Below are positions 2,186-20,195 of a stretch of 64,000 nucleotides of DNA, in pieces. Positions within the stretch are counted from its first letter, which is position 1; each line of letters opens with the position of its first letter. The notes under the pieces were generated by a model that saw nothing but the letters and a program-made list of their open reading frames with translations, was not told the DNA's origin and did no database searches. Made by a program: the position numbers and the translations under genes. Source of the DNA: a virus (lineage: Duplodnaviria; Heunggongvirae; Uroviricota; Caudoviricetes); the IMG/VR virus record IMGVR_UViG_3300008113_000307, positions 21,919-85,918 of that record; one strand, given 5' to 3'.

Positions 2186-2239
2186 TTCTTGAAAATAATC
2201 GAACCTAGCTAAATACTCTTATAAACATAAGGGTTCGAT

Positions 2240-3253: not shown

Positions 3254-3282
3254 TTGACATGATTCACTGTTGATGTTACAAT
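3254..3282 (+). promoter_or_regulatory. sigma70-like promoter
   Basis: TTGACA-17-TACAAT; downstream region has no convincing ORF. Confidence 0.45.
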
Positions 3283-3864: not shown

Positions 3865-4128
3865 AAAAAGCAAAGACTGACACGGCGGTATGTGAAAAGC
3901 ATCTAATACTTGACACGCAAGTGAATCAAGTCCAACGTAGCTCGCAAGGTGAAATTGGTTTATGCAGGAAGTTTCGTAAGGTGTTAGCGCACTTGAATGG
4001 CTAGGTGCTGTTAGGTAAGCATGTAATCTCAGTGCTCCACTATTCTAAAACACATTACCCCCGTAAAACGGTCTATACTAGTCACTAACCGAGTTGTTGT
4101 GTAGTGTGTTTCAGAATGGTAAATATAT

Positions 4129-4202
4129 CGCGGGTAGGGTGGCCACCACACCGGTCTCATAAGCCAGGTGCATCGGCAGTTCGAATCTGTCACCCGCATC
4201 CA
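4129..4202 (+). tRNA. tRNA-Met(CAT), initiator-like (C1-A72 mismatch)
   Basis: Acceptor cgcgggt/acccgca with 1-72 mismatch, anticodon loop ctCATaa, T-arm ggcag-ttcgaat-ctgtc, CCA. Confidence 0.5.
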
Positions 4203-4248
4203 GTTTTTTGGCGTGTTGTATAAATACAACATAAAATTTTTCACTTGG

Positions 4249-4277
4249 TTGACAACATCGACTAAGTACAGTACAAT
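4249..4277 (+). promoter_or_regulatory. sigma70-like promoter of a short transcription unit
   Basis: TTGACA-17-TACAAT; ATG 4285 and terminator at 4443-4475. Confidence 0.5.
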
Positions 4278-4442
4278 AGGACACATGATGAAACAACAAT
4301 TCTGTTCACAGCTGACCAAACCCACAATGCTCCAGACATCCGTCTGGTCGCACGGTTTTGGCCGCGTGAATAGTATTCCAGGCATCAGGGTCCACGAAGG
4401 TTGGGACGATTAACAAGTCGTAACACACACAAACTTCAAAGA

Positions 4443-4475
4443 CCCTGGAACTCAAAACTCCAGGGTTTTTCTTTT
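4443..4475 (+). terminator. Rho-independent terminator
   Basis: ccctgga-actcaaaact-tccaggg stem-loop followed by tttttctttt. Confidence 0.7.
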
Positions 4476-4685
4476 AGTGCAAGGCAACGCGAGCCGGCAA
4501 CACTCAAAACTGCAAATGAGGGCGTCCTCGGGGATGAGAAGCACTTCTTGTAGTGTGTGAAAAAACCGAGCGTATCGAAGAGGATTGTTCTCTTAACTGA
4601 GCATCCGCGGAGAGGAACTAATATTATGTTCGACTGACTCAACAGTCTTCTTCGATACCTGCATTGGCAACAGTGCAGTAAATTT

Positions 4686-4759
4686 ACCCGCATAGCTCAA
4701 AGGTAGAGCACACGCTTGATAAGCGTTAGACCAAGGATCGTTACCTTGTGTGGGTACCA
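4686..4759 (+). tRNA. tRNA-Ile(GAT), T-loop ATCGTTA
   Basis: Acceptor acccgca/tgtgggt, anticodon loop ttGATaa, CCA. Confidence 0.55.
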
Positions 4760-4765
4760 AATTTT

Positions 4766-4840
4766 ATCTCTCTGGTGTAATGGCAGCACATCGGCCTCCA
4801 AAGCCGTAAGGTCAGGGTTCGAGTCCTTGGGGGGATGCCA
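4766..4840 (+). tRNA. tRNA-Trp(CCA)
   Basis: Acceptor atctctc/gggggat (GU pairs), anticodon stem cggc/gccg with loop ctCCAaa, T-loop ttcgagt, G discriminator, CCA. Confidence 0.65.
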
Positions 4841-4848
4841 ATTTTTGT

Positions 4849-4922
4849 TCGGGAATTGTGTAATGGTAGCACAACAGACTTTGACTCTGTTAGCCTAGGT
4901 TCGATCCCTAGTTCCCGTGCCA
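4849..4922 (+). tRNA. tRNA-Gln(TTG)
   Basis: Anticodon stem acaga/tctgt with loop ctTTGac, T-arm ctagg-ttcgatc-cctag, G discriminator, CCA. Confidence 0.55.
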
Positions 4923-4932
4923 GTTTTTGTAT

Positions 4933-5011
4933 TCCACAGAACCCGAGCGTGGTGCATGGGCCGGACTGTTAATCCGTGGTTAGCTGGGATCGTCACCCAG
5001 ATGTGGAGCCA
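4933..5011 (+). tRNA. tRNA-Asn(GTT) variant, T-loop ATCGTCA
   Basis: Acceptor tccacag/atgtgga, anticodon loop ctGTTaa resembling E. coli tRNA-Asn, CCA. Confidence 0.5.
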
Positions 5012-5017
5012 AGTTTT

Positions 5018-5093
5018 CTCCGTATAGCGTAATCTGGTAGCGTTCCTGGTTTGGGGCCAGGAGGTTGGGGTTCAAATCCTCATATGGAGACCA
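5018..5093 (+). tRNA. tRNA-Pro(TGG)
   Basis: Acceptor ctccgta/tatggag, anticodon stem tcctgg/ccagga with loop ttTGGgg, T-loop ttcaaat, CCA. Confidence 0.6.
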
Positions 5094-5101
5094 AAAATTT
5101 G

Positions 5102-5130
5102 TTGACAGTAACCGCTGTTGACTATATAAT
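5102..5130 (+). promoter_or_regulatory. sigma70 consensus promoter
   Basis: TTGACA-17-TATAAT immediately upstream of tRNA-Asn. Confidence 0.6.
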
Positions 5131-5148
5131 ACAAACAACAAAGTATGT

Positions 5149-5223
5149 TCCTCAGTAGCTCAGCGGTAGAGCAATCGGCTGTTAACCGATCGGTCATTGG
5201 TTCGATCCCAGTCTGAGGAGCCA
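5149..5223 (+). tRNA. tRNA-Asn(GTT)
   Basis: Acceptor tcctcag/ctgagga perfect, anticodon loop ctGTTaa, near-identical in outline to E. coli tRNA-Asn, CCA. Confidence 0.8.
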
Positions 5224-5281
5224 AAATAAAAAGCGGATGACCTTTCTGCTCTTTTGTATAAATAAAACAAAGGAGCATGAT

Positions 5282-5671
5282 ATGAATGTGAATCAAAAAG
5301 GAAACATTGGCTTATTAAAAGTTATTAGTGATTTGTATAACAAAGGTTTTACAGCGTTTAAACCGTTTGATGACTACAATCCAGTGGATTTGATTGCTAT
5401 GGAATCGTCTGGAAAAACGTTTAGACTACAAGTAAAATATCGTAGTATGGATCCTAAAAGAAAAAGATATGAAATTTCTGCACAATCTATAGTTAATAGC
5501 AAAGCTGTGCCAATAGATAGAAATCTAATAGATTTTTGGGCAGTATATTTGGCAGATCTAGATCAAGTGGTCTATATGCCGGTTAGTATTATGGAGGGCA
5601 AAGGAGTCCACTATATTACTGAGAGACAATTAGGTGAGATGGATGAGAGGTTGAAATCGGCACCCTGCTAA
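5282..5671 (+). CDS. PD-(D/E)XK family nuclease (Hjc/Holliday-junction-resolvase-like)
   Basis: RBS aaaggag then ATG; motif GNIGLLKVISDLYNKGF...PVDLIAME...RLQVK matches the D-x-E-x-K restriction-endonuclease fold; low GC; 3' end overlaps tRNA-Ser. Confidence 0.5.
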   Translation: MNVNQKGNIGLLKVISDLYNKGFTAFKPFDDYNPVDLIAMESSGKTFRLQVKYRSMDPKRKRYEISAQSIVNSKAVPIDRNLIDFWAVYLADLDQVVYMPVSIMEGKGVHYITERQLGEMDERLKSAPC

Positions 5672-5724
5672 GGTGTTTTCTTGGGAAACCAGGGACGTGG
5701 GTTCGAATCCCACTTTCACCACCA
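5633..5724 (+). tRNA. tRNA-Ser(GCT), type II
   Basis: Acceptor ggtgaga/tttcacc, anticodon loop ctGCTaa, long variable arm cttgg-gaaa-ccagg, T-loop ttcgaat, CCA. Confidence 0.6.
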
Positions 5725-5753
5725 ATTTAGAGTTTAGCAAACTCAAACAATTC

Positions 5754-5827
5754 GCCCTGTTAGTTAAGTGGCATAACGCCTGTTTTGTAATCAGGAGTTG
5801 GCAGTTCGATTCTGTCACGGGGCACCA
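5754..5827 (+). tRNA. tRNA-Thr(TGT)
   Basis: Acceptor gccctgt/acggggc, D-arm gtta-agtggca-taac, anticodon loop ttTGTaa, CCA. Confidence 0.55.
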
Positions 5828-5835
5828 ATTAAAAT

Positions 5836-5911
5836 GCGGGTGTAGCTCAGTTGGTAGAGCACTTCCTTGCCAAGGAAGATGTCAGGAGTTCGAGCCTCCT
5901 TACCCGCTCCA
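5836..5911 (+). tRNA. tRNA-Gly(GCC)
   Basis: Acceptor gcgggtg/tacccgc, anticodon stem cttcc/ggaag with loop ttGCCaa, T-loop ttcgagc, CCA. Confidence 0.7.
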
Positions 5912-6009
5912 ATTTTTGTAGAGATGCAAGTGCCAAACTGAGCGCATGCTCACCGGTGCATCCCGGCTATGCCTAGATATTGGCTCTGGGCTTACTACAT
6001 TTTTCTTTT

Positions 6010-6083
6010 GCTCTTGTAGTTAAGTGGTATAACGAATCCATGGTAAGGATTAATCGACAGTTCGATTCTGTACTTGAGCACCA
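6010..6083 (+). tRNA. tRNA-Thr(GGT), acceptor has 2 mismatches
   Basis: D-arm gtta-agtggta-taac, anticodon stem aatcc/ggatt with loop atGGTaa, CCA. Confidence 0.45.
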
Positions 6084-6137
6084 CCCAACCGGCCCATACC
6101 ATCCCTTGACGAGCAGGTCCCTGGGCTTTGTTTTCGC

Positions 6138-6213
6138 GCCGCGGTAGCTCATCAGGTAGAGCAGCAGACTGAAAATCTGTGTGTGGCTGGTTCGAGTCCA
6201 GCTCGTGGCACCA
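6138..6213 (+). tRNA. tRNA-Phe(GAA)
   Basis: Acceptor gccgcgg/tcgtggc, anticodon stem gcaga/tctgt with loop ctGAAaa, T-loop ttcgagt, CCA. Confidence 0.7.
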
Positions 6214-6219
6214 TCTAAT

Positions 6220-6297
6220 GCGTCTTTAGCTCAGTTGGAATAGAGCACTGGTTTACGAAACCGGGGGTCGGGAGTTCGAGTCTCTCAGGACGCACCA
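6220..6297 (+). tRNA. tRNA-Arg(ACG)
   Basis: Acceptor gcgtctt/aggacgc, anticodon stem ctggt/accgg with loop ttACGaa, CCA. Confidence 0.7.
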
Positions 6298-6302
6298 CAC
6301 AG

Positions 6303-6331
6303 TTGACAACAATTGCAGATTGTTGTATAAT
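6303..6331 (+). promoter_or_regulatory. sigma70 consensus promoter
   Basis: TTGACA-17-TATAAT upstream of the second tRNA sub-cluster. Confidence 0.6.
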
Positions 6332-6443
6332 TAAGACTTAAACAAAAAGGTTACACTATGAAACGCTCAGGCAAACCCTAGTGTCATCCTGGTCCCCCGT
6401 ATGGTCCTGGATGGCACGTAAAAGACAATCTATTACGATCCAT

Positions 6444-6518
6444 CCATGCTAAACTTTGCTGGCGAAGTACCCGGCTCTTACCCGGACAAACTGAGTTCGA
6501 TTCTCAGAGCATGGACCA
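6444..6518 (+). tRNA. tRNA-Lys(CTT)
   Basis: Acceptor ccatgct/agcatgg perfect, D-stem actt/aagt, anticodon stem ccgg/ccgg with loop ctCTTac, T-loop ttcgatt, CCA. Confidence 0.5.
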
Positions 6519-6521
6519 TAT

Positions 6522-6596
6522 GGGGGCATAACTTAACGGCTAAAGTAGTCGGCTTTTAACCGACCTATCAGAGTTCAATTCTCTGTGCCCCTACCA
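6522..6596 (+). tRNA. tRNA-Lys(TTT)
   Basis: Acceptor gggggca/tgcccct, anticodon stem gtcgg/ccgac with loop ctTTTaa, T-loop ttcaatt, CCA. Confidence 0.7.
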
Positions 6597-6668
6597 TATG
6601 CAAACACATTAACAGCGTCGTGCCGGTCGCCGGACTTAGGTTGAATTCCTAATAGTGTGTTTACATAT

Positions 6669-6743
6669 GGTGTCGTTAGTTTAGTGGCAAAACCGCGGAT
6701 TGTGATTCCGCTATCATGAGTTCAATTCTCATACGATACCCCA
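6669..6743 (+). tRNA. tRNA-His(GTG) with extra 5' G(-1)
   Basis: Extra 5' g, acceptor gtgtcgt/acgatac, anticodon stem gcgga/tccgc with loop ttGTGat, C discriminator, CCA. Confidence 0.7.
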
Positions 6744-6789
6744 CATACCAAAATTACATAAGTTAGACTTAATCTACATAATTAATAAT

Positions 6790-7833
6790 ATGACAAATCA
6801 GTATAGTGACGTTCTCAATACTCATAAAATCATGTTCAACGATTCTATTAGAAATAATTTTTACAAAAAAATTTTAACTGGTTGCGTTGAGAACAAGCAC
6901 TGCGTAGAAGTGGGGTTTGGTACTGGCATTTTATCTGTTATTGCATGTGATCTTGGTGCAAAACATGTGATTGCATATGAGCACAATCTCGACACATACA
7001 ACTTTGGTCAGGAAATGATCAAAACTTTAAACTTGACCGACAGAATTTTATTGCTTAATGAAACATTTGAACCTTCCAAACTATCACAACATCATAAGAT
7101 AGATGTAATGTTTTCTGAAACAGTTGATAATGCGTTATGGGGGGAAGGTTGGTATCTCAATACATTTATTGATGACCCAAACATAAACATACTGCCCAAC
7201 AAATATTTTTTCGAATCTTTTTGTATTGAAGTCGAAGATAATTATGCTCAAGGGCTACTAATGGGTCCTGAACACTTGTGTAATCCAGGCATACCCATCA
7301 ATCATCAATTTGTTGATTTTATTAATCAACATCTCACATCTGGTGGTAGTAAAGATACGGTTGTATCTAAAATTGACGAGTATTACACTAATAAAATAGT
7401 TGACATAAGTTTGGCCAATCAAGGTACTTTTTGGGGATGGCACACCCAACTAATGGAAGCGTTTGATATTAGACAGAAAGTTGCCGATTTTCAATATGCA
7501 TTAGACCTTAACAAAAAAAACATAATTTTAACAGACAAATATAAAACAACTATAAAAAAAATAAACCCAGATTTATCGTCGATAGAATTTCAACTAAAAA
7601 TGGAAAATCCCGATTCTAATTATCTAATATTTTTTAGAGTAGGATTAGAATCCGGCAACGAAAAATTTTATTTAGATAGCGGACATTTTGGACCTTTCAG
7701 TTCAGCGTTTTTACTGAGAAGTTCTTCTAAAAATAAAATAGTAAATCTTTCACATAATTTGTTCGATGGCGGAATAACTGCTGAATACAATAAAAAAATT
7801 ATCAAAAAAGTTGCTTCGGATAATTGGGCATGA
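6790..7833 (+). CDS. Class I SAM-dependent methyltransferase, PRMT-like
   Basis: NDSIRNNFYKKIL, motif I VEVGFGTGILS, and IDVMFSETVDNALWGEGW resemble type I protein arginine methyltransferases; strongly AT-rich. Confidence 0.55.
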   Translation: MTNQYSDVLNTHKIMFNDSIRNNFYKKILTGCVENKHCVEVGFGTGILSVIACDLGAKHVIAYEHNLDTYNFGQEMIKTLNLTDRILLLNETFEPSKLSQHHKIDVMFSETVDNALWGEGWYLNTFIDDPNINILPNKYFFESFCIEVEDNYAQGLLMGPEHLCNPGIPINHQFVDFINQHLTSGGSKDTVVSKIDEYYTNKIVDISLANQGTFWGWHTQLMEAFDIRQKVADFQYALDLNKKNIILTDKYKTTIKKINPDLSSIEFQLKMENPDSNYLIFFRVGLESGNEKFYLDSGHFGPFSSAFLLRSSSKNKIVNLSHNLFDGGITAEYNKKIIKKVASDNWA

Positions 7834-7872
7834 CCTATTGCAACAATTAGGTTGGCCTTTCAACATAGACAT

Positions 7873-7947
7873 GGAAGTATAGCACAGCGGTAGTGCAGCA
7901 CCTTCATACGGTGTTGGTCAGTAGTTCGAATCTACTTACTTCCACCA
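7873..7947 (+). tRNA. tRNA-Met(CAT) (elongator Met or Ile2 precursor)
   Basis: Acceptor ggaagta/tacttcc perfect, anticodon stem gcacc/ggtgt with loop ttCATac, T-loop ttcgaat, CCA. Confidence 0.65.
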
Positions 7948-7948
7948 T

Positions 7949-8023
7949 GGGCCTTTGGTGAAATGGATATCATGCTGGTCTTCGAAACCAGCGGTGGGAG
8001 TTCGATCCTCTCAGGGCCCGCCA
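7949..8023 (+). tRNA. tRNA-Arg(TCG)
   Basis: Acceptor gggcctt/agggccc, anticodon stem ctggt/accag with loop ctTCGaa, CCA. Confidence 0.6.
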
Positions 8024-8201
8024 GTTATAACGATGCAATGAATCGCCTGGCTGATTCAGCGTCAACAAAATAGAACATGCGCAGGCTGTCGTCGTAAATA
8101 TCATTGACAATGATGTAGCCTGTGTTGTCGTTGCTCATGCTGAGATGGATTTGAATTCCGTCTGCGGTGAGAGTGTCGTAGATGTACATAAGTTTATTTA
8201 A

Positions 8202-8275
8202 GCGGGTAAGCTCAAGGTGAGACGTCAGCCTTCCAAGCTGCACTGAGTGGGGTTCGACTCCCCCTACCCGCTCCA
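8202..8275 (+). tRNA. tRNA-Gly(TCC)
   Basis: Acceptor gcgggta/tacccgc, anticodon stem cagc/gctg with loop ctTCCaa, T-loop ttcgact, CCA. Confidence 0.65.
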
Positions 8276-8281
8276 GTTTTT

Positions 8282-8355
8282 CTCGGTATGGTGAAATGGT
8301 ATCACTCGACGTTTGGGACGTTGGAGCGTAGGTTCGATTCCTGCTACCGAGACCA
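8282..8355 (+). tRNA. tRNA-Pro(TGG), second copy
   Basis: Acceptor ctcggta/taccgag perfect, D-stem gtga/tcac, anticodon stem cgacg/cgttg with loop ttTGGga, CCA. Confidence 0.55.
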
Positions 8356-8362
8356 TGACAAT

Positions 8363-8439
8363 GCACAGGTGGCGGAGTGGCCCAACGCAAGGGATTGCAA
8401 ATCCCTAAAACCGTGAGTTCAAATCTCACCCTGTGCTCC
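8363..8439 (+). tRNA. tRNA-Cys(GCA)
   Basis: Acceptor gcacagg/cctgtgc perfect, anticodon stem aggga/tccct with loop ttGCAaa, T-loop ttcaaat, CCA. Confidence 0.7.
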
Positions 8440-8445
8440 AGATAC

Positions 8446-8537
8446 GGAAAGTAATGCAGCGGGGATGGTCCTGCGACTGGCCTTGAAAACCAGGTTCTCT
8501 TAACAGGGATGGGGTTCGACTCCTCTGCTTTCCGCCA
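8446..8537 (+). tRNA. tRNA-Ser(TGA), type II
   Basis: Acceptor ggaaagt/gctttcc, anticodon loop ctTGAaa (reads UCA), long variable arm, T-loop ttcgact, CCA. Confidence 0.6.
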
Positions 8538-8557
8538 TAAGTACAGCAAAGGAGATC

Positions 8558-8728
8558 ATGATGACAAGATCAGCAATTTTTCAAAACAAAATTACTCGGG
8601 AACGCCTGATCTGCGACAACGTGGATCTTGTGCGTTGGTTTGATGGTGCGGCCTTTTTGTCAGTTCGGCGAGAAGGAACTGAACGACGTTTCCTAATTCG
8701 TCGCGATGCACTGCAAGAAATAGTATAA
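8558..8728 (+). CDS. Hypothetical small protein (56 aa)
   Basis: Strong RBS aaaggag 6 nt upstream of ATG; between tRNA-Ser and tRNA-Val. Confidence 0.5.
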   Translation: MMTRSAIFQNKITRERLICDNVDLVRWFDGAAFLSVRREGTERRFLIRRDALQEIV

Positions 8729-8737
8729 TTGACACAT

Positions 8738-8812
8738 GCCTGGTTAGCTCAGGGGGAGAGCGCTTCGTTTACACCGAAGATGTCCGCGGTTCGAAACCGT
8801 GACCAGGTACCA
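8738..8812 (+). tRNA. tRNA-Val(TAC)
   Basis: Acceptor gcctggt/accaggt, anticodon stem cttcg/cgaag with loop ttTACac, T-loop ttcgaaa, CCA. Confidence 0.65.
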
Positions 8813-8818
8813 AACATA

Positions 8819-8893
8819 GTCTCTGTAGTTCAATGGATAGAACAAGTTCCTCCTAAGAATTAGATATCAGTTCAATTCTGGTCAGAGACGCCA
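8819..8893 (+). tRNA. tRNA-Arg(CCT)
   Basis: Acceptor gtctctg/cagagac perfect, anticodon stem agttc/gaatt with loop ctCCTaa, T-loop ttcaatt, CCA. Confidence 0.6.
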
Positions 8894-8933
8894 ATCTTGC
8901 GATAGTGGTGGCATCAATAATTTTATTTTTACT

Positions 8934-9782
8934 GTGATTAATTATTTTACCGATAATCTCCTATTTGCATATTATCCACAGGGCGCTGGGGGGAAATTTT
9001 TACTTAACTGCATTGGATTAAGTGATCATTCCGTATTACAATCTAGAGCACTAGTGGTAAAACAACTTGAAAATAATTTTAATCAAGACCAAAAATTTAA
9101 TTGGTTACTGGAAAAAATTAAATATGCTAAAAAAAGAAAACACTGGAATGATCTGGACCTTGGTTGTACTGAATTGTTTGGACAGGAAGATCAACCATAT
9201 TATCCAGAAATAGACATACTATCTAACTCACATTTAATTTTTTCCAAAGTAGCACACAGTTATAATGTGTTGCTAGACGCAACTAACACTTGGCCCAATG
9301 CAAAAATTTTGCAACTAGAAAATTGTCATAACTTTATTTCAGCATATAGATCTCATACTTTGTCCAATCCAGCAGCCCCCGAACCTGATATTTTGTCATT
9401 AGTTTGGAAAAATATTAGAGATCAATCATGGCCAGTTAATCATCCCACTACGCTAGAAGAATACAATCAATTAGATATTAAAATTCGTAATGAAGATCAA
9501 TACATGCATAATCATTCAATTTTACAAGAGATTATTAAATGCAAACAACTGAATTATCGGCTATTGCAAAATATCAACGTTATTAAATGGGACTGTGATT
9601 GGTTTTTTGATTGTGATGTTTGTGTTGATCAATTAAGTACAGTATATCAAAAACTTTGTTTACCTGACTTCGATCGAAAAAAAATTAAAGCCTATTTTTT
9701 AGCCTGGATAGACTGTCTAGATACTATAGACAAAGATCAAAAGAAAAATCTCAGAAGCAATAAAAGCCAAATGGGAAGATAG
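8934..9782 (+). CDS. Hypothetical protein (282 aa), AT-rich
   Basis: Long low-GC ORF embedded in tRNA array; GTG start; no family recognised. Confidence 0.5.
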   Translation: MINYFTDNLLFAYYPQGAGGKFLLNCIGLSDHSVLQSRALVVKQLENNFNQDQKFNWLLEKIKYAKKRKHWNDLDLGCTELFGQEDQPYYPEIDILSNSHLIFSKVAHSYNVLLDATNTWPNAKILQLENCHNFISAYRSHTLSNPAAPEPDILSLVWKNIRDQSWPVNHPTTLEEYNQLDIKIRNEDQYMHNHSILQEIIKCKQLNYRLLQNINVIKWDCDWFFDCDVCVDQLSTVYQKLCLPDFDRKKIKAYFLAWIDCLDTIDKDQKKNLRSNKSQMGR

Positions 9783-9788
9783 AAAAAT

Positions 9789-9873
9789 GCGGATGTGGCG
9801 TAATTGGTAGCCGCACCAGATTTAGGTTCTGGCGTTGAAAGGCGTGGGGGTTCGAGTCCCTTCATCCGCACCA
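9789..9873 (+). tRNA. tRNA-Leu(TAG), type II
   Basis: Acceptor gcggatg/catccgc perfect, anticodon stem ccaga/tctgg with loop ttTAGgt (reads CUA), long variable arm, CCA. Confidence 0.65.
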
Positions 9874-9921
9874 AGACTCTCCCTGACACACGGAGTATAA
9901 TAGGACAAGTAGTGTGTTTCC

Positions 9922-9995
9922 AGGTCATTAGCTCAAAGGTAGAGCGGTGCATTGACATTGCACATACAGCGGATCGTTACCGTTATGACCTACCA
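9922..9995 (+). tRNA. tRNA-Val(GAC), T-loop ATCGTTA
   Basis: Acceptor aggtcat/atgacct perfect, D-arm gctc-aaaggta-gagc, anticodon stem gtgca/tgcac with loop ttGACat, CCA. Confidence 0.55.
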
Positions 9996-10003
9996 AACAT
10001 CAT

Positions 10004-10080
10004 GCCTTTGTAGCCGAATTGGTATAGGCACTGCGTTGAGGTCGCAGGTTCTGCTGGTTCGAGTCCAGTCAAAGGCACCA
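10004..10080 (+). tRNA. tRNA with Leu anticodon GAG but short (type I) variable arm
   Basis: Acceptor gcctttg/caaaggc perfect, anticodon stem ctgcg/cgcag with loop ttGAGgt, 5-nt variable region, T-loop ttcgagt, CCA. Confidence 0.5.
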
Positions 10081-10085
10081 TTTTT

Positions 10086-10157
10086 AGCGTCACTCTGGCT
10101 GATCTAACTGGGGTCCAATCCCGGTAGTCAAAGGTTCGATTCCTGCAGGCGCTGCCA
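10086..10157 (+). tRNA. Short tRNA-like element with Trp anticodon CCA and reduced D-arm
   Basis: Acceptor 6/7, anticodon stem ctggg/cccgg with loop gtCCAat, T-loop ttcgatt, CCA; only 69 nt before CCA. Confidence 0.35.
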
Positions 10158-10335
10158 TTTTTGCAAACACAAAACCGTGCAGGGGCAATCCCCCGGCTGG
10201 CCCTGTGCAGTGATGCATAACCAGCGGATCAGGTGTCGGGGTGAGAGGCCCCGGGTCGTTTCTGGTGGAAACAGCATCTAGTAACGATGCTGACGACAGC
10301 AGTGCCCTGCACGAAACCAGGTGTTTGCGTTTTTA

Positions 10336-10364
10336 TCGACCAAAAATCAAGAACACAGTATAAT
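10336..10364 (+). promoter_or_regulatory. sigma70-like promoter
   Basis: TCGACC-17-TATAAT, ATG 7 nt downstream at 10371. Confidence 0.5.
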
Positions 10365-10370
10365 AGAAAC

Positions 10371-10601
10371 ATGTATAAATTAATAAACAAAGCAGGCACA
10401 GAACTAGATGGATTTGAGACCTTGGACTCTGCTATGCAAGCCGCAAAGGCAGTGGGCTTCTTTGTGACCATTGCAGGACCGGACTTTGAAGTGTGTGGTC
10501 GGTTTGGAGTAGACACTGTTCGAAACGGGCTGTGCCCAGATGGTGTTAAATACGATTGGAACAAAGCTAGTCGCATTGGCGCAACTAAACGAAAAAGATA
10601 A
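10371..10601 (+). CDS. Hypothetical small protein (76 aa)
   Basis: First ATG after promoter; ends 2 nt before next gene. Confidence 0.5.
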
Positions 10602-10603
10602 AA

Positions 10604-11008
10604 ATGCTGGATAGATTGTTTACAGGTCTTGAAGATATACAAACAAAAACTTGCGGAATGTGTTTGAAAACTCTACCGCTAACTATGTTCGGTAACGACG
10701 GCGGCGCAAAATATCTTAGATATGAGTGCAAGACATGTGCAAAAGCTCAAAGCAAATTGTTAAAAACAATTAAAAAATCTGCACCAGCAATTCCTAAAGA
10801 TTACAAGTGTCCAATTTGCAAGCGTAATGAGCAAGAAGCTAAAGGACATAATCCCAACAAAAAAGGAATTTGGTGTGCCGACCACAATCATGCATCGGGT
10901 AAATTTAGAGGTTGGCTATGTCACAAATGCAATTTAGGATTAGGCAATATGAACGATGACATAGATAGATTAGAAGCTGCTATCAAATATTTAAAGGAGA
11001 AACCATGA
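10604..11008 (+). CDS. Recombination endonuclease VII family protein
   Basis: Cys clusters plus [25 protein letters not shown]...LEAAIKYL match the T4 endo VII signature. Confidence 0.75.
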
Positions 11009-11676
11009 AACGTGTGATTGAAATTCGTGCTGCCGAAGGCGGCGAAGACTCTAAGTTGTTTGTGCAAGATCTTGCACAGGCCTACATCAAGTTTGCTCAC
11101 AGCAAAGGCTGAGCTGCCCGCCTGACAAATCAGATGGCCGGCGAGCAGCATGTGTTGGTCGAAGGCGGTGATTTATCAGGCTTGACGAACGAAGCAGGAG
11201 GGCATCGTATTCAACGAGTGCCGCCTACCGAACGCAAAGGCCGTGTGCATACCAGCACAGTGACAGTGGCCATAGTTGACCCCCGAACCATTGCTACCAC
11301 CATTCGAGAGAGTGATCTCTATGTAGAGTGGTATTCAGGTACAGGTGCTGGAGGGCAGTATCGCAACAAGCATCAAAACTCATGTAGAATCACACATGTG
11401 CCCACCGGCATCACTGCCAAGTCTGAGTGCCGAAGCCGAGCCAACAGTTTGGCTGAAGCTACCCAGGCCATACAGCAACGAGTTGACCACGTGCTACAAA
11501 GTCGCTATAATAGTGCAGTGGCACAGGATCGACGTTCACAAGTGGGCACTGGCCAGCGAGGAGACAAAATACGCACCTATAGATTTCAAGACGATGTCAC
11601 ACAAGACCATGTGACTGGACAACGTGCCAGCACACGACGAGTGTTACAGGGAAACTTTGATCTCTTGTGGAACTGA
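11005..11676 (+). CDS. Truncated class I release factor (RF1-like, domains 2-4) interrupted by an in-frame TGA at 11110-11112
   Basis: ATGA overlap with upstream gene; [34 protein letters not shown] aligns with RF1 VRAGTGGDEAALFAGDL..ARRW; downstream [12 protein letters not shown] (PxT motif), SGTGAGGQ and [13 protein letters not shown] match RF1 domains 3-4. Confidence 0.8.
11113..11149 (+). promoter_or_regulatory. Stable hairpin directly 3' of the in-frame TGA (candidate recoding/readthrough stimulator)
   Basis: gctgcccgcc pairs with ggcgagcagc (9 of 10 bp) around a 17-nt loop, starting at the first nucleotide after the stop codon. Confidence 0.55.
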
Positions 11677-11810
11677 TGCGTAAATAGAAACAGGTGGCGT
11701 CCAGCCTGGACCTCTACTGCACTGGTCTGCAGACATGTCAAACTAGAACGGGTGAGTTGAGGAGCCGCAGGTGCCAAAGGCCTGCACTGGATTCGGTAAC
11801 CAGTATTTTT

Positions 11811-11888
11811 GCCCCTGTGGACAAATTGGCAAAGTCGCTTCTCTCAAAAGGAAGAGTGTTCTCAGTTCGACTCTGAGCAGGGGTACCA
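11811..11888 (+). tRNA. Solitary type-I tRNA with anticodon CAA (Leu UUG codon), A73 discriminator
   Basis: Acceptor gcccctg/caggggt, D-stem gac/gtc with 11-nt loop, anticodon stem cttct/ggaag with loop ctCAAaa, T-loop ttcgact, CCA; sits 130 nt after the release-factor gene. Confidence 0.55.
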
Positions 11889-12502: not shown

Positions 12503-12567
12503 ACTTTATGACATCAGCACAGACTGTGCTGACTCGATCCAATCAACATTTATACATAGGAGAAATA

Positions 12568-13107
12568 ATGAAAACAGTTGGCGATAAATTGACTAAATTT
12601 GCAGTGACCGGTGTCCGGCCCGGGCAACCTGAAGACGCATTCTTCACAATCACAGACGAGAGCTTTGCAGGCAAGTGGAAAGTGATTGTGTATTACCCCA
12701 AGGACTTTACCTTTGTATGCCCAACAGAAATCGTTGCATACGATAAATTGACTGGTGACTTTGCTGATCGTGATGCAGTGTTGCTGACCGGTTCGACAGA
12801 CAATGAGTTCTGCAAGGTTGCTTGGCAAACTGCTCATGAAGATCTCAAGAAGATCACCCACACTCAGTTTGCTGATACACAGCGTGGTGAGTTGAGCTTG
12901 ATCGAACAACTGGGCGTGTTCTACGCTCCAGCAGGTGCTGCCCTTCGTGCCACATTCATTGTTGACCCCAACAACGAGATCCAGCACGTGACTGTCAACA
13001 ACTTGAACGTGGGTCGTAGCCCAGAAGAAACTTTGCGTGTACTTGACGCACTGCAAACTGGTGAACTGTGTGCATGTAACCGTACTGTGGGCGGGGAGAC
13101 ACTGTAA
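12568..13107 (+). CDS. ahpC: Peroxiredoxin AhpC (typical 2-Cys)
   Basis: RBS aggagaaataATG; peroxidatic-Cys motif FTFVCPTEI and C-terminal GELCACN resolving-Cys region. Confidence 0.85.
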   Translation: MKTVGDKLTKFAVTGVRPGQPEDAFFTITDESFAGKWKVIVYYPKDFTFVCPTEIVAYDKLTGDFADRDAVLLTGSTDNEFCKVAWQTAHEDLKKITHTQFADTQRGELSLIEQLGVFYAPAGAALRATFIVDPNNEIQHVTVNNLNVGRSPEETLRVLDALQTGELCACNRTVGGETL

Positions 13108-13613
13108 TGGCATTCATCGACGCAGTTAAAGGTGCGTTGCCAGAATACGCAAAGGACACCAAGTTAAATCTTGACGCTGTTCTTTTGCGTAGTACTCTAG
13201 ATGCGGATGTGGCCATGGGGTGTGCTGTGGCTGCATTGGCTGCAACCGGCAACGGCAAAGTACTCAGCATCATGTTGGCCGATGCGCCTGTGCATGCAGA
13301 ACCAGCAATGACAGCAGCCAGCATCATGGCCCAAAACAACGTTTGGTATCCTTACGTTGAAATGGCAGATGATCCGGCACTGAAAGGCCTGCCTGCTCAG
13401 TTGCGTATGAATGCTATTGCGTCACACGGCGGAACTACCAAGGCCAACTTTGAAGCGTTCTCGTTGGCAGCAAGTATTGTGGGCAAGTGTCACTTCTGTG
13501 TCAAAGCACACTATGATACTCTAAAGGCAGAAGGCTACACTGTAGAGAACTTGCGTGATATCGGACGTATTGCCAGTGTCATGAATGCTGTGGCCAAAGT
13601 GCTCAACAGTTAA
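13107..13613 (+). CDS. ahpD: AhpD-like alkylhydroperoxidase (carboxymuconolactone decarboxylase family)
   Basis: ATG overlaps ahpC stop (TAATG); CxxC-type motif KCHFCVKAH; size 168 aa. Confidence 0.65.
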   Translation: MAFIDAVKGALPEYAKDTKLNLDAVLLRSTLDADVAMGCAVAALAATGNGKVLSIMLADAPVHAEPAMTAASIMAQNNVWYPYVEMADDPALKGLPAQLRMNAIASHGGTTKANFEAFSLAASIVGKCHFCVKAHYDTLKAEGYTVENLRDIGRIASVMNAVAKVLNS

Positions 13614-13792: not shown

Positions 13793-13821
13793 TTGACCTT
13801 GTGGGCTAGGCGTGTTATACT
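13793..13821 (+). promoter_or_regulatory. sigma70-like promoter
   Basis: TTGACC-17-TATACT upstream of 13852 gene. Confidence 0.5.
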
Positions 13822-13851: not shown

Positions 13852-14136
13852 ATGAGCACTGAACAAGATCGATTCAAGAACTCAAAACGTCGTCTACGTG
13901 ACGAGTCGGCAGTGAAAAAGCAAACCAAAATTGCCAAGGCATACGGAGTTCCTGTAACGGAGCCCCACAAGTTTGCCAAACATCATGCCATGAACTGTGG
14001 AAACCCAGATTGTGTCATGTGTGGTAACCCACGCAAGACGTTCAATGAACTGACCGCACAAGAACAGCGACTGTTTCAGGACACCGAAGCAATCCGTAAC
14101 CGCCATTCAAACGGCACACAAGAGGAAACACCATGA
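13852..14136 (+). CDS. Hypothetical zinc-ribbon-like small protein
   Basis: NCGNPDCVMCGNPR four-Cys motif; basic N-terminus. Confidence 0.5.
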   Translation: MSTEQDRFKNSKRRLRDESAVKKQTKIAKAYGVPVTEPHKFAKHHAMNCGNPDCVMCGNPRKTFNELTAQEQRLFQDTEAIRNRHSNGTQEETP

Positions 14137-14384
14137 GAGACATTGATAGAACTGCTGGCCTGACCAGTCAAGCTGCTGTGGAAGCCATTGGCAATCGTTA
14201 CAACCTGGTGCTGGTGGCATCTCAACGCATGCGAGAGCTGGCCCGTGGCAGTGCCAGGCGAGTGACATCTCGATATGGTGACGGTGTTACTACCTTGTTG
14301 GAAATCGAGCAGGGCAAGGTAGGTATTGATTACCTGATGAAAGCCCCGCAAGTTGAGCAACGAAGACGATCAAATCCTCGTTGA
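14133..14384 (+). CDS. rpoZ: RNA polymerase omega subunit (RpoZ)-like protein
   Basis: AVEAIGNRYNLVLVASQRMRELARG aligns with E. coli RpoZ [23 protein letters not shown]; RBS agaggaaaca; 83 aa. Confidence 0.65.
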   Translation: MRDIDRTAGLTSQAAVEAIGNRYNLVLVASQRMRELARGSARRVTSRYGDGVTTLLEIEQGKVGIDYLMKAPQVEQRRRSNPR

Positions 14385-14398
14385 CAGCAAACTACAAT

Positions 14399-14431
14399 CC
14401 TGCTACAATAAAACATAGCAGGATTTTTTTT
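14399..14431 (+). terminator. Rho-independent terminator
   Basis: cctgcta-caataaaaca-tagcagg followed by a T9 run. Confidence 0.7.
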
Positions 14432-14438: not shown

Positions 14439-14936
14439 ATGATGCCCTGGATTCAAAACGTAGCACTCAGTGATGTCAAAAAAGGACATCATGTTCGCGT
14501 GGGCGAGAATAGCATGCTGATTCAGATTGTGGATCCTGACATGGAGCATCCTGCTCCTGCACACCAGTTTAAGGAAGTGTATCAGTTCCGCTTTTTGGAT
14601 CTAGAACACAATGACGACTGCATCAACGATGCCTGGAAGATCCAGGACCAGGATGCTAAACAGTTGGTTGGCCTGTTGCAACATGCCCTGGACAATCGCA
14701 TGGACGTGGTTGTGCACTGTGTGGCAGGCGTTTGCCGTAGTGGTGCAGTTGCCGAAGTCGGAGTCATGATGGGCTTTGACGACACCGAAGTGTTCCGCAG
14801 TCCCAATCTCTTGGTCAAGCACAAGATGATGAAGCAGTTGGGCTGGACATATGATGAGAACGAGCCACACACCATTAATGGTGTGATGTTGGATTCGGGT
14901 ATCATCATCCCTAAATCAAGAGACGGAGATATTTGA
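14439..14936 (+). CDS. Protein tyrosine / dual-specificity phosphatase (CX5R)
   Basis: Active-site signature VVHCVAGVCRSGAV; start could be TTG 14430, ATG 14439 or ATG 14442 after ggagag. Confidence 0.7.
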   Translation: MMPWIQNVALSDVKKGHHVRVGENSMLIQIVDPDMEHPAPAHQFKEVYQFRFLDLEHNDDCINDAWKIQDQDAKQLVGLLQHALDNRMDVVVHCVAGVCRSGAVAEVGVMMGFDDTEVFRSPNLLVKHKMMKQLGWTYDENEPHTINGVMLDSGIIIPKSRDGDI

Positions 14937-16928: not shown

Positions 16929-17402
16929 ATGTCAAATAGTCCTACTGTATATGTGTTGATTGGCTTGCCGGCCGCTGGCAAAAGCACCTGGGTGTCTCAG
17001 CAAGATTGGGCCAGCACTTGTGCCTACATCAGCACCGATCACTATGTGGATCGCTTTGCGGCTCGTATGGGTCAGACTTATAACCAGGTGTTTGAGACTG
17101 TGATGCCCCGGGCCATACGGCTCATGATGCGAGCAGTGCGACGAGCACAGGCTCGGGGTCAAGACATCATCTGGGATCAGACCAACCTGACTCGGGCCAG
17201 TCGTGTCAAAAAGTTTAGAATCCTGCCTGAGTATCGTGCAGTGGCAGTGGTGTTTGCTGCTCCTGAGCCTGAAGAACATGCTCGCAGGCTTGCCAGTCGT
17301 CCGGGCAAGCGGATACCTGACGCAGTGCTGGCCGACATGATTCAGAGTTATGAGCCGCCCGATGAAGGCGAAGGCTTCGAGGAGATTTGGTATGCCCAGT
17401 GA
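16929..17402 (+). CDS. P-loop kinase, polynucleotide kinase (T4 Pnk kinase-domain)-like
   Basis: Walker A GLPAAGKSTW and downstream IWDQTNL / R-rich blocks resemble T4 PNK N-terminal kinase domain; no phosphatase domain. Confidence 0.55.
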   Translation: MSNSPTVYVLIGLPAAGKSTWVSQQDWASTCAYISTDHYVDRFAARMGQTYNQVFETVMPRAIRLMMRAVRRAQARGQDIIWDQTNLTRASRVKKFRILPEYRAVAVVFAAPEPEEHARRLASRPGKRIPDAVLADMIQSYEPPDEGEGFEEIWYAQ

Positions 17403-18116: not shown

Positions 18117-18166
18117 TTTGCTCAATATTCCTGTTTGTGCTATAATACATGTATAGCGAAAAGGAG
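18117..18166 (+). promoter_or_regulatory. Promoter-leader cassette variant
   Basis: TTGCTC-18-TGTGCTATAAT then acatgtatagcgaaAAGGAG, ATG 18173. Confidence 0.55.
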
Positions 18167-18172
18167 TTGATT

Positions 18173-18676
18173 ATGGACATGACAGAAAGAGCCCGCGTGT
18201 TTGCCACTGCCGCACATGCCGCTGTGGGTCAACTCCGCAAGTATACGCACGAACCTTACATAGTGCACCCCGCTGAAGTGGTGAGCATTGTGCAAACTGT
18301 GCCGCATACCGAAGCCATGTTGGCCGCGGCCTGGTTGCATGATGTAGTGGAAGACACCGGCGTCACAATAGAAACTGTGCGAGCCGAATTCGGAACAGCG
18401 GTTGCGGACTTGGTGTCATGGTTGACTGATGTGAGTCGTCCCGAACAGGGCAATCGTGCACATCGCAAGGCCTTGGACCGTGCACACACTGCAGCCGCTC
18501 CGGCTGAAGCACAGACTGTGAAGTTGGCTGATTTGATCTCCAACACTCGTAGCATCGTGGCTCACGACGCCAAGTTTGCTGAAACTTACCTCGCAGAAAA
18601 GAGGTTGTTGTTGGAGGTAATGACCCGGGGCGATGCCACGTTGATGGCCATAGCCCGTAGAAATATTGGAGCATGA
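18173..18676 (+). CDS. HD-domain phosphohydrolase, RelA/SpoT-hydrolase-like
   Basis: HEPYIVHPAEV...AAWLHDVVEDT matches the (p)ppGpp hydrolase HD signature. Confidence 0.6.
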   Translation: MDMTERARVFATAAHAAVGQLRKYTHEPYIVHPAEVVSIVQTVPHTEAMLAAAWLHDVVEDTGVTIETVRAEFGTAVADLVSWLTDVSRPEQGNRAHRKALDRAHTAAAPAEAQTVKLADLISNTRSIVAHDAKFAETYLAEKRLLLEVMTRGDATLMAIARRNIGA

Positions 18677-18677: not shown

Positions 18678-18812
18678 ATGAGCCAGCGTCAATGGACTGT
18701 GAAAATCTGGGACGGGTATTCCAACAGTGAATATCAACGTCAAGGCACGTATCAGCAGGTGGCAAATAGTCTGGCAGGACTGCCACCTGCATATATTTGG
18801 AGCATGATATGA
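18678..18812 (+). CDS. Hypothetical small protein (44 aa)
   Basis: Preceded by ttggagcatgatATG, the same motif that precedes the next gene. Confidence 0.35.
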   Translation: MSQRQWTVKIWDGYSNSEYQRQGTYQQVANSLAGLPPAYIWSMI

Positions 18813-19105
18813 ACCCACGTATTCGAGAACTGATGGTTGAACTCAAAAAGACTGTTTCGACTCATCGTGGTGCTGAAGTGCTAGCTGGCTATGATGAGAT
18901 TGAAAAGTTCGCCGAGTTGATTGTGCGGGAATGTATGACAGTAACTAAAGATTACACCTGTAATCAAGGTTGGGATTATTCTGCACCTGTTGCATTAGCA
19001 AGGCATTTTGGATTTGGAGTTGAAGAATGGAACAACTATTTGACAAATTGCTCAACCAAGCCATCGACGGCGGTGATGAAACATCGTTTCGGAGTTGAAC
19101 AATGA
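18809..19105 (+). CDS. Small-protein paralog family member 1 (MNxRIxEL...KFAELIVREC...HFGVE)
   Basis: Conserved N-terminus MNPRIREL, central KFAELIVRECM and C-terminal HFGFGVEEW. Confidence 0.55.
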   Translation: MNPRIRELMVELKKTVSTHRGAEVLAGYDEIEKFAELIVRECMTVTKDYTCNQGWDYSAPVALARHFGFGVEEWNNYLTNCSTKPSTAVMKHRFGVEQ

Positions 19106-19305
19106 ACGAACGAATTCGAGAACTTAGAGAACAGGCTTGGGCACTGGTATCTGATGAAGAACGAGATTGTGGCGAATTGTATGAGACACGGTGGGAACGA
19201 TGTGATCAAAAGTTCGCCGAGTTGATTGTGAGAGAATGTGCCTTACAGTGCGTTCATAATGAAGATATGGACCTGATTGAAAAACATTTCGGAGTTGAAG
19301 AATGA
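19102..19305 (+). CDS. Paralog family member 2
   Basis: MNERIRELREQ...KFAELIVRECA...KHFGVEE. Confidence 0.55.
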   Translation: MNERIRELREQAWALVSDEERDCGELYETRWERCDQKFAELIVRECALQCVHNEDMDLIEKHFGVEE

Positions 19306-19461
19306 AACTACATTTATATTATGTTGTTCAAGGCAGTGAAGCCGCAGGTTACACACTAGTCAACGGTCCATTCTCCTCATTGGATCGGGCGCTTGACGCT
19401 AAATCTGGTCAGCTGTTCAGCGAAGGTATGACTGTTGTTAAACACACAATCGAGGTTACGA

Positions 19462-19722
19462 ATGAACGAACGAATCAATAAACTTGCTCTACAGGCTGAA
19501 CAATATGCCCGGGATGACTTAATTGAACGCCGTGCAGTGGGTGCTCCGCTCTATACTGAGGGTGAATATGAGAACAAGATCAAGCAAAAGTTTGCTGAGT
19601 TGATTGTGCTGGAATGTGCTGGATTATTTCCAAATGTGTATGTAGAAATTGAAAACGAATACGGGCACACTCCTGTTATTGCGGCGGACTATATAAAAGA
19701 ACATTTCGGAGTTGAATCATGA
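19462..19722 (+). CDS. Paralog family member 3
   Basis: MNERINKLALQAEQ...KFAELIVLECAG...KEHFGVES. Confidence 0.55.
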   Translation: MNERINKLALQAEQYARDDLIERRAVGAPLYTEGEYENKIKQKFAELIVLECAGLFPNVYVEIENEYGHTPVIAADYIKEHFGVES

Positions 19723-19946: not shown

Positions 19947-19976
19947 GCCCTGTAGAACTTTTTTTTGGAGTATAAC

Positions 19977-20195
19977 ATGAACAAACGAATTCAAGCTCTT
20001 GCTGAACAGGCTGGATACACAAAAGATATGTTTGGTGTAGGACACTGGGATATGCCAGAGTGTAAAAAGTTCGCTGAGTTGATTGTGCGGGAATGTGCTG
20101 GTATTGCCAATAAACAATTTAGTGCGGCGTCTGGGTTGGATGATCGAGATTGTTGGACTGCGGCTGAGATGAAGAAACATTTCGGAGTTGAATAA
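19977..20195 (+). CDS. Paralog family member 4
   Basis: MNKRIQALAEQAG...KFAELIVRECAG...KKHFGVE. Confidence 0.55.
   Translation: MNKRIQALAEQAGYTKDMFGVGHWDMPECKKFAELIVRECAGIANKQFSAASGLDDRDCWTAAEMKKHFGVE

Follow-up and report, generated by a model that had tools for sequence, protein, structure and literature searches.

A phage-encoded homologue of the RNA polymerase omega subunit with a retained core and a remodelled N-terminus

The omega subunit and its homologue in phage DNA

Phages re-programme the RNA polymerase (RNAP) of their hosts by means of sigma factors, anti-sigma factors, covalent modification, and small binding proteins. Among the subunits of the core enzyme, the least is understood about omega, whose clearest regulatory role is to form one half of site 1 for the alarmone guanosine tetraphosphate (ppGpp). 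Eukaryotic giant viruses possess Rpb6/RPABC2 homologues within a complete virus-encoded RNAP. The present work concerns a 64,000-nucleotide stretch of DNA from an uncultured phage of the Caudoviricetes (positions 21,919 to 85,918 of the IMG/VR record IMGVR_UViG_3300008113_000307), hereafter called the window, in which a short open reading frame (ORF) at 14133–14384 encodes a homologue of omega (RpoZ). The giant-virus Rpb6 proteins belong to the same superfamily, but no other RNAP subunit was seen in the 64-kb window, and the omega encoded there has a sequence of bacterial (proteobacterial) type.

The core of bacterial omega latches the N- and C-terminal parts of beta' (PMC7700224). In ppGpp site 1, omega residues 2–5 coordinate the phosphates together with R417 and K615 of beta' (PMC7676912), and most contacts with the 5'-diphosphate are made by omega Ala2/Arg3 and beta' Arg417 (PMC13192712). 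The standard site-1-minus enzyme combines rpoZ(delta 2–5) with rpoC R362A, R417A, and K615A (PMC7676912 for the omega residues), and the N-terminal Met-Ala-Arg (MAR) motif serves to predict site 1 in a given species (PMC6912228). Viral versions of a host machine part have been described in several forms, as huge phages encode sigma-70 and AsiA-like proteins (PMC7162821) and jumbo phages lacking an RNAP encode sigma homologues (PMC13282480); the ribosomal proteins of huge phages follow the same logic. These proteins act on the dissociable sigma or on the ribosome, whereas the protein described here is the homologue of a core RNAP subunit. Control of RNAP by a virus-like element through omega is exemplified by GafA, from the gene transfer agent of Rhodobacter, a system that has a link to ppGpp as well (PMC9638019). 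The omega bound by GafA is that of the host, whereas here the element brings its own. A phage-encoded omega was not found in the searchable literature, including three broad surveys of jumbo and huge phages that mention neither omega nor rpoZ.

The full 83-residue translation of the ORF is MRDIDRTAGLTSQAAVEAIGNRYNLVLVASQRMRELARGSARRVTSRYGDGVTTLLEIEQGKVGIDYLMKAPQVEQRRRSNPR, and its N-terminus reads MRDIDRTAGLTS. The peptide AVEAIGNRYNLVLVASQRMRELA, on which the original prediction of an omega-like protein was based, was located at residues 15–37. The Pfam profile PF01192 (RNA_pol_Rpb6) matched this protein at E = 1.4e-8 with 35 bits (gathering score 26), and the NCBIfam rpoZ profile TIGR00690 matched it with 25 bits (cutoff 23.6), so that the profile search proposed as a check on the prediction returned significant omega hits in both collections. 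The profile for housekeeping rpoZ (NF001579) gave 22.8 bits against its cutoff of 58. When the PDB was searched with phmmer, omega chains accounted for 22 of the 24 matches listed at E ≤ 10, including the top 22; the best scores were obtained for the omegas of V. cholerae (1e-7) and E. coli (6e-7), with residues 8–78 of the window protein aligned to residues 2–74 of the PDB omegas. An AlphaFold2 model was built using 53 family members, which gave a predicted local distance difference test (pLDDT) value of 80 overall and approximately 90 across residues 11–70, with predicted helices at 12–19, 22–37, 50–59, and 65–68. All of the 50 PDB matches listed by Foldseek for this model were omega chains, on which the target-normalised template-modelling score was 0.6–0.78 and the root-mean-square deviation was 1.4–1.7 Å over ~62 columns (E. 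coli and V. cholerae). The window protein hence shares with these bacterial omegas (8tom_K, 9gdo_E) the family, the core motifs, the predicted three-helix fold (~1.6 Å), and 38–48% sequence identity. The ORF at 14133–14384 was identified as encoding a true RpoZ/Rpb6 homologue, a membership that holds by profile, core residues, and predicted fold alike; curated profiles, PDB sequence matches, and the predicted fold all agree with what had been proposed from the letters of the DNA.

The start codon of the omega gene overlaps the stop codon of the preceding ORF (ATGA), and a Shine-Dalgarno-like stretch, AGAGGA, lies 5' of it. No alternative in-frame start was present near the conserved Ala of omega, and the extension that precedes this Ala (D-R-T) is itself conserved, so the assignment of the start codon is secure.

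Spread of the phage omega family and its altered residues

A search of 5.8 billion proteins yielded at least 104 clusters of the omega family, all of them with PF01192 and 47–98 residues in length, and a scan of IMG/VR yielded 26 loci. Metagenome pipelines had automatically labelled proteins of this family as "RNA polymerase subunit omega". The phage omega clade was confined to phage-like metagenomic contigs, with clusters persisting down to ~50% identity. The window protein itself was found, in identical form, on more than 20 metagenomic contigs, and its relatives reside on contigs from IMG/VR and JGI that are 161, 343, and 349 kb long. No member of the clade was detected in 185,579 species genomes of bacteria and archaea (one genome each), which gave ordinary rpoZ only. 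The matched rpoZ genes belonged to Gamma- and Betaproteobacteria (including Thiobacillaceae, Alteromonadaceae, Colwellia, Xenorhabdus, and Comamonadaceae) at 34–48% identity. Neighbour-joining of 53 phage and 60 cellular omegas separated the two groups in 172 of 200 bootstraps (86%), and the phage-to-cell identity was 35% on average and 48% at maximum. The window gene also lies outside the gmk-rpoZ-spoT operon, being placed in an island of phage tRNA and putative early genes, and no cellular omega exceeded 48% identity to it; the phage-encoded status originally assigned to this gene was borne out. Between the window and its relative in locus L034, dN (nonsynonymous divergence) was 0 at a dS (synonymous divergence) of 0.26, and the dN/dS ratio was 0.05–0.3 for close pairs with a median of 0.29 over the usable pairs. 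The reading frame is real and under purifying selection.

The family is rare among described phages, as had been expected. PHROGs contained no family matching omega, in keeping with its absence from cultured phages, and tblastn of two family members against 50,697 GenBank phage records detected no clade member and only host-like rpoZ. A qualification is that the window gene is not a singleton in metagenomic data, as the cluster and locus counts given above indicate. Records labelled as phage that contain bacterial chromosome DNA were found to be a source of false "phage rpoZ" hits. One such candidate, "Acinetobacter phage MD-2021a" (H38; locus L119, CAKLQH020000003.1), was rejected as bacterial DNA containing gmk-rpoZ-spoT beside pilin and ispH genes, and "UNVERIFIED Campylobacter phage A11a" (L120, MG065691.1) was rejected for its 80% nucleotide identity to enterobacterial rpoZ-spoT over 3.7 kb. 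Two more hit records turned out to be genome assemblies of Salmonella, where the annotation of the matched gene is omega; the remaining hits in the phage collection showed the same host-like rpoZ match.

To compare residues, the 53 phage-clade members were aligned with cellular omegas from the retrieved loci (60 distinct sequences), with the numbering of the window protein. A8 (A2 in E. coli), A15, E17, G20-N21-R22, L25, L27, R32, R34, G39, V52, E57-I58-E59, and G61 are conserved alike in the phage and cellular sets, and can be regarded as the omega core. Among them, G20, N21, R22, R32, R34, E57, E59, and G61 are invariant in the family, which is characterised by the motifs GNR[FY], LxL, RxR, and EIExG. 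The N-terminal segment differs. The phage clade starts with an extension of 6–13 residues and reads ...R-T-A-G-L-T-S in place of Met-Ala-Arg, so that position 7 is an internal Thr in 85% of the phage proteins, whereas it is Met1 in all cellular ones. Position 9 is Gly in 89% of the clade and corresponds to Arg3 of E. coli, which is Arg in 100% of the cellular omegas. Similarly, Leu (91%) replaces Val (93%; V4 in E. coli) at position 10, and Ser (94%) replaces Val (98%; V6 in E. coli) at position 12. Further along the chain, the phage and cellular residues are respectively Ala and Asp at position 14, Ala and Lys at 18, Tyr (Y23, 96%) and Phe at 23, Glu (E35, 100%) and Gln at 35, Leu and Arg at 56, Lys (K62, 91%) and Leu at 62, and Val and Ile at 63; Y23, E35, L56, K62, and V63 are specific to the phage clade when compared with bacterial omega. 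The C-terminal tail is shorter and basic in the phage proteins and longer and acidic in the cellular ones, with a net charge after EIExG of +3.2 (range +2 to +6) and −3.2 (range −7 to +2), respectively. A MAR(V/I)T start was found in 76 of the 80 nearest cellular omegas. The window protein carries the Gly of its clade in place of Arg3 and does not have this MAR-type, site-1-competent N-terminus; the Ala of MAR is kept in the clade, while the Arg and the free N-terminus are lost.

A putative surrogate omega and its alternatives

The omega gene is preceded by a small ORF (hereafter upORF), and a sigma-70-type promoter-like site lies upstream of the pair (Table 1). Together with the likely intrinsic terminator beyond omega, this delimits a unit of promoter, upORF, omega, and terminator. 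The terminator hairpin was missed by the consensus terminator scan, its loop being longer than 8 nt, and it is conserved solely in the window's own lineage and in locus L117. Promoter-like sites were found 5' of the upORF-omega pair in several related loci, or directly 5' of omega where upORF is absent. This conservation is patchy across the related loci, so the promoter and terminator are described here as features of this window only. The pattern TTGACM-N17-TAYAMT gave 18 exact matches in the window as compared with 0.05 expected from shuffled sequences. All 18 are on the plus strand within 462–29225, mostly just 5' of ORF starts, and the minus-strand block of structural and sugar-modification genes contained zero matches. 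They constitute a regulon of consensus sigma-70-type promoters over the tRNA and auxiliary-gene block. No RNAP domain was found with Pfam and PHROGs in the large ORFs of the 64-kb window, the whole genome being ~350 kb. The phage PA5oct, a member of a group related to the window through a structural protein, relies on host RNAP (PMC7318152). The 18 consensus promoters, the absence of RNAP domains from the large ORFs tested, and the PA5oct-type kinship together point to dependence on a sigma-70-type holoenzyme; the block appears to be read by such an enzyme, presumably that of the host, early in infection.

The original prediction also pointed to a nearby HD-type (p)ppGpp-hydrolase-like gene. 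This gene exists as an ORF at 18149–18676, of which the start at 18173 that had been given corresponds to the 167-residue form of most homologues. It matched the HD_4 profile PF13328 with 61.2 bits (cutoff 27.2), contains the HDxxED catalytic motif, and shares 33–35% identity with the N-terminal hydrolase domain of SpoT. The HD_4 profile, the LHDVVEDT motif, and this identity are common to the small alarmone hydrolases and the SpoT hydrolase domain. The phage protein differs from SpoT in being a stand-alone protein of ~167 residues, and its companions in relatives are a kinase, a phosphatase, and an RNA ligase, not omega; it may therefore act on RNA ends or on other alarmones instead of ppGpp. 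HD-type alarmone phosphodiesterases have already been noted in jumbo phages (PMC7824862). Homologues of the window gene number in the thousands, the top 120 being at least 80% identical and located on contigs of up to 357 kb. In 78 of 80 proteobacterial loci, the SpoT domain starts ~150–350 nt after rpoZ, and the phage arrangement of omega followed by HD_4 on one strand mirrors this cellular rpoZ-spoT operon. The suggested link between the two phage genes was sustained in part: several lineages have both, with the order kept and a spacing of 1.5–4 kb, but there are also loci where one is present and the other is missing nearby. Co-capture of both as an rpoZ-spoT fragment would fit their order and strand. 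This idea was not adopted, because the identities to cellular proteins (at most 48% for omega, ~34% for HD_4) do not suffice to assign both genes to one donor, the gap is 1.5–4 kb, and the genes occur separately.

We propose that the phage protein acts as an early-expressed surrogate omega, which would sit on the host beta' and change the regulation of the enzyme, most likely by removing or re-specifying ppGpp site 1. A probability of roughly 0.45 is given to this reading. It starts from the homology, the retained core, the change of the site-1 segment and tail, the purifying selection, the confinement to a phage clade, and the setting among sigma-70-type promoters, each of which was observed as described above. 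The omega would be made early by the RNAP of the host, which is probably a proteobacterium, and would take the place of host omega at its site on beta', be it during the assembly of new enzyme or through exchange. The hybrid RNAP would then respond differently to ppGpp, most simply less. Remodelling of host RNAP had been suggested in the original prediction and is plausible with regard to ppGpp responsiveness, whereas none of the observations bears on sigma selection. Such a response is expected because the MAR arrangement is lost, with Arg3 changed to Gly and the N-terminus extended by 6–13 residues, and because the tail is basic; the clade lost precisely the Arg and the free N-terminus while retaining the Ala. 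Phage transcription might in this way be kept going in starved hosts with high ppGpp, and in several lineages the SpoT-type hydrolase of the same putative early island could lower alarmone levels as well. A bolder form of the proposal is put forward tentatively, namely that this is the first virus-encoded replacement of a bacterial RNAP core subunit, which displaces or pre-empts host omega, removes or re-specifies site 1, and sustains phage transcription in starved cells, while its tail and surface may recruit a factor such as the upORF product. If true, exchange of a core subunit would differ from the known routes by which phages re-programme RNAP, and no phage precedent for it was found in the searchable literature.

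Several points weigh against the proposed surrogate omega, as we infer every step of it beyond the omega homology. In 68% of the phage clade, an Arg (R6) stands two positions ahead of the conserved Ala and could rebuild the phosphate contact instead of destroying it. E. coli RNAP with omega(delta 2–5) and the beta' substitutions bound ppGpp only ~2-fold worse in one assay (PMC7676912). Site 2 with DksA is also still in place, so loss of the omega contacts may bring little physiological gain. A host with a MAR-type omega and the beta' site-1 residues (R362, R417, K615) is assumed. Furthermore, the basal phage-context member P0100 starts with MARITSE and thus retains MAR, while P0101 and P0102 start with MTDRLTSQ; these sequences fit a MAR-type proteobacterial ancestor whose N-terminus was remodelled afterwards. 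The linkage to HD_4 is loose as well. Omega occurs without HD_4 within 8–10 kb in loci L027–L030 (the clade of the 349-kb contig), L001/2, L020–22, L024–26, and L117. Conversely, loci L127 and L128 (357 and 264 kb) carry the phosphatase-like protein, AAA_33, HD_4 (81–82% identical), and an RNA ligase, and neither omega nor upORF was detected by tblastn and hidden Markov model search within 7 kb of their HD_4. Omega, together with upORF, hence looks like an accessory addition upstream of a wider phosphatase/kinase/ligase/HD_4 module. Finally, a phage-encoded RNAP is possible in a ~350-kb genome of which 64 kb were inspected.

The same observations can be read in other ways. The protein might simply be an ordinary extra omega that chaperones beta' and stabilises host RNAP, with its differences due to neutral drift. 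Assembly and stabilisation of beta' is the classical role of omega (PMC7700224), the beta'-latching core is the most conserved part of the phage protein, and copies of host housekeeping parts are common in huge phages (PMC7162821). The differences are however conserved across the clade (G9, L10, S12, Y23, E35, K62, and a tail that is always net positive) and are clustered in the ppGpp-contact segment, and an extra wild-type-like omega seems to be a weak benefit when omega is dispensable in most bacteria (PMC9638019), which makes this explanation somewhat unlikely. The conserved clade-specific surface residues and the basic tail would also suit a handle on RNAP that recruits a phage regulator to phage promoters, for example the translationally coupled upORF product, whose stop codon overlaps the omega start and which is paired with omega in most loci; the activation of the gene transfer agent RcGTA by GafA through binding to omega (PMC9638019) is a precedent. 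We regard such a docking role as unlikely, as upORF belongs to a wider phage family (phrog_4499) that occurs without omega, omega lineages without upORF exist (L015–L019 and L022–L026), and the predicted fold of upORF gave no informative match. By analogy with dominant-lethal E. coli omega mutants, which bind alpha2-beta-beta' more tightly and render RNAP initiation-defective (PMC7700224), the phage omega could instead bind the core more tightly than host omega does, inhibit host initiation, and aid shut-off. Most of the lethal mutations map close to the conserved C-terminal region, in which the phage clade differs too. General inhibition would nevertheless hurt a phage with many consensus sigma-70-type promoters in the same region, and this poisoning is considered quite improbable.

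Two further explanations place the protein outside host RNAP or deny it a function. It might be a subunit of a phage-encoded multisubunit RNAP located elsewhere in the ~350-kb genome, as the window covers 64 kb only and some jumbo phages do encode such enzymes (PMC13282480). The subunits of these jumbo-phage enzymes are highly divergent (PMC13282480), whereas the phage omega is 40–48% identical to proteobacterial omegas and has a canonical core; when the missing RNAP domains in the large ORFs tested, the sigma-70-type promoters, and the host-RNAP dependence of the nearest cultured relatives are also considered, this becomes very improbable. Even less credible is that omega is a non-functional passenger, captured incidentally with an rpoZ-spoT fragment of which the hydrolase domain was the useful part. 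The order of omega and HD on one strand is that of rpoZ-spoT, a pair found side by side in 78 of 80 proteobacterial loci, but a passenger would hardly be under strong purifying selection, form at least 104 clusters, be kept in lineages without a nearby HD_4, or possess its own promoter and Shine-Dalgarno-like stretch.

The identity of the phage omega is secure and its family sizeable, and the sequence changes point to a specific, testable hypothesis for the function suggested above. Omegas selected by viruses, with a beta'-binding core and a rebuilt site-1 segment and tail, would be a tool to separate the structural from the regulatory roles of the subunit. They also provide a testable idea of how giant phages of nutrient-poor waters might transcribe their genes in starved hosts, and a family of more than 100 clusters on contigs of up to 350 kb is abundant enough to matter ecologically.

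Neighbouring genes and the source phage

Table 1. Features of the omega unit and of its surroundings in the window.
Feature	Position	Strand	Remarks
AhpC-like peroxiredoxin + AhpD/CMD-like redox cassette	12508..13613	+	upstream of omega unit, not part of it
Sigma-70-type promoter-like site	13793..13821	+	TTGACC-17-TATACT with TG; upstream of upORF-omega pair
upORF, 94-aa small protein	13852..14136	+	PH..K.HA.DCGxPxCxxCGNPRK; stop overlaps omega start; phrog_4499, unknown function
Phage omega (RpoZ/Rpb6 homologue), 83 aa	14133..14384	+	6-residue N-terminal extension, core ~8-64, basic C-terminal tail
Promoter-like site	14381-14409	+	overlaps omega stop, precedes phosphatase-like gene
Likely intrinsic terminator	14396..14431	+	hairpin of 10-bp stem and 10-nt loop, then T8; dG -14.7 kcal/mol, z -3.2
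Dual-specificity (Cys) phosphatase-like protein	14439..14936	+	first gene downstream of omega; sub-threshold DSPc/Tc-R-P/PTP-SAK hits; own promoter-like site
AAA_33 P-loop kinase (polynucleotide-kinase-like)	16929..17402	+	81 bits; phrog_505 polynucleotide kinase 1.8e-10
Stand-alone HD_4 protein (SpoT/RSH hydrolase-domain homologue)	18173..18676	+	LHDVVEDT motif intact

The upORF protein contains three nearly invariant cysteines (C49, C54, and C57) and conserved histidines, which may form a zinc-binding site. Its family comprises 251 representatives at 50% clustering. The ORF is called as 94 residues in loci L031 and L032 and lies directly 5' of omega in most loci, and relatives without omega exist, for example beside a T4-type clamp loader. 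No PDB fold match was obtained for its AlphaFold2 model (pLDDT 88). The view of upORF as a DksA/TraR-like RNAP binder found no support, as it had neither a Pfam hit nor a PDB fold match.

The neighbourhood was surveyed by tblastn of the window proteins against 34 related loci, which revealed a recurrent order of an RNaseH-like gene (in some cases), a redox cassette, then upORF, omega, the Cys-phosphatase-like gene, and the AAA_33 kinase, followed by HD_4, with interruptions on either side of the central group. At the position of the redox cassette, rubrerythrin and rubredoxin were found in L027–L030 and L117 (7918–8500 in L027; 1057–1634 in L117), and these differing cassettes suggest repeated replacement of an oxidative-stress module. 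Relatives add an RNA ligase (PF09414 or RNA_lig_T4_1) or a metallophosphatase to the pair of Cys-phosphatase and AAA_33 (3972–6341 in L127; 5399–8809 in L128; 3544–5084 in L115). Such a phosphatase/kinase/ligase/HD_4 module suggests RNA-end repair (healing and sealing, or tRNA repair) or alarmone hydrolysis.

The window is part of a giant, tRNA-rich uncultured phage that has structural-protein kinship with jumbo myoviruses of the Atu_ph07/PA5oct type. This assignment is made because of the tRNA array, the structural-protein kin, and the relatives located on 161–349 kb contigs. ARAGORN located 31 tRNA genes at 667–11888, covering most amino acids, and Rfam added three tRNAs beyond that list (1411–1490, 3796–3860, and 8202–8272). 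On the 3' side of the array, small ORFs with auxiliary functions follow one another in a long same-strand series and encode RNaseH-like/DUF458, AhpC-like, AhpD-like, Cys-phosphatase-like, AAA_33 kinase, and HD_4 proteins, and the opposite-strand block shows similarities to baseplate and virion proteins and to sugar-modifying and radical-SAM enzymes. No nucleotide-level relative of the window was present among the 50,697 deposited phage records. A 568-residue structural protein (57324–59033) was nearest to those of Sinorhizobium phage Phosso, Agrobacterium phage Atu_ph07, and the Pseudomonas PA5oct group, and the DUF458 protein occurs in many large proteobacterial phages. A piece of a permuted transfer-messenger RNA (tmRNA; RF04321) was detected at 1–105 on the plus strand (48.3 bits, with the gathering score at 47; model positions 102–213), being cut by the window start. 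Such a phage-borne piece of a two-piece tmRNA might help to identify the host lineage.

Other features were observed away from the omega unit. An HNH endonuclease ORF at 2240–2740 (plus strand) ends inside the 90-nt tRNA-Ile(tat) at 2705–2794, a tRNA that was also detected by Rfam, and may be a homing-endonuclease insertion beside or within the tRNA array. A truncated class-I release-factor or ArfB-like protein of 180 residues is encoded at 11134–11676 (plus strand), and carries an RF-1 (GGQ) domain (Pfam RF-1, 60.6 bits; phrog_19918) as well as the last part of a PCRF domain. On the plus strand, at least four small ORFs in tandem (18797–19105, 19102–19305, 19435–19722, and 19965–20195) share the motif KFAELIV(R/L)ECA...HFGVE and represent a locally expanded paralogous family. 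A sugar-modification set, consisting of NAD-dependent epimerase/dehydratase, DegT-type aminotransferase, and Nol-like carbamoyltransferase genes, is distributed over 35334–37344 on the plus strand and 43009–53201 on the minus strand, and is adjoined by four paralogous radical-SAM-like genes.

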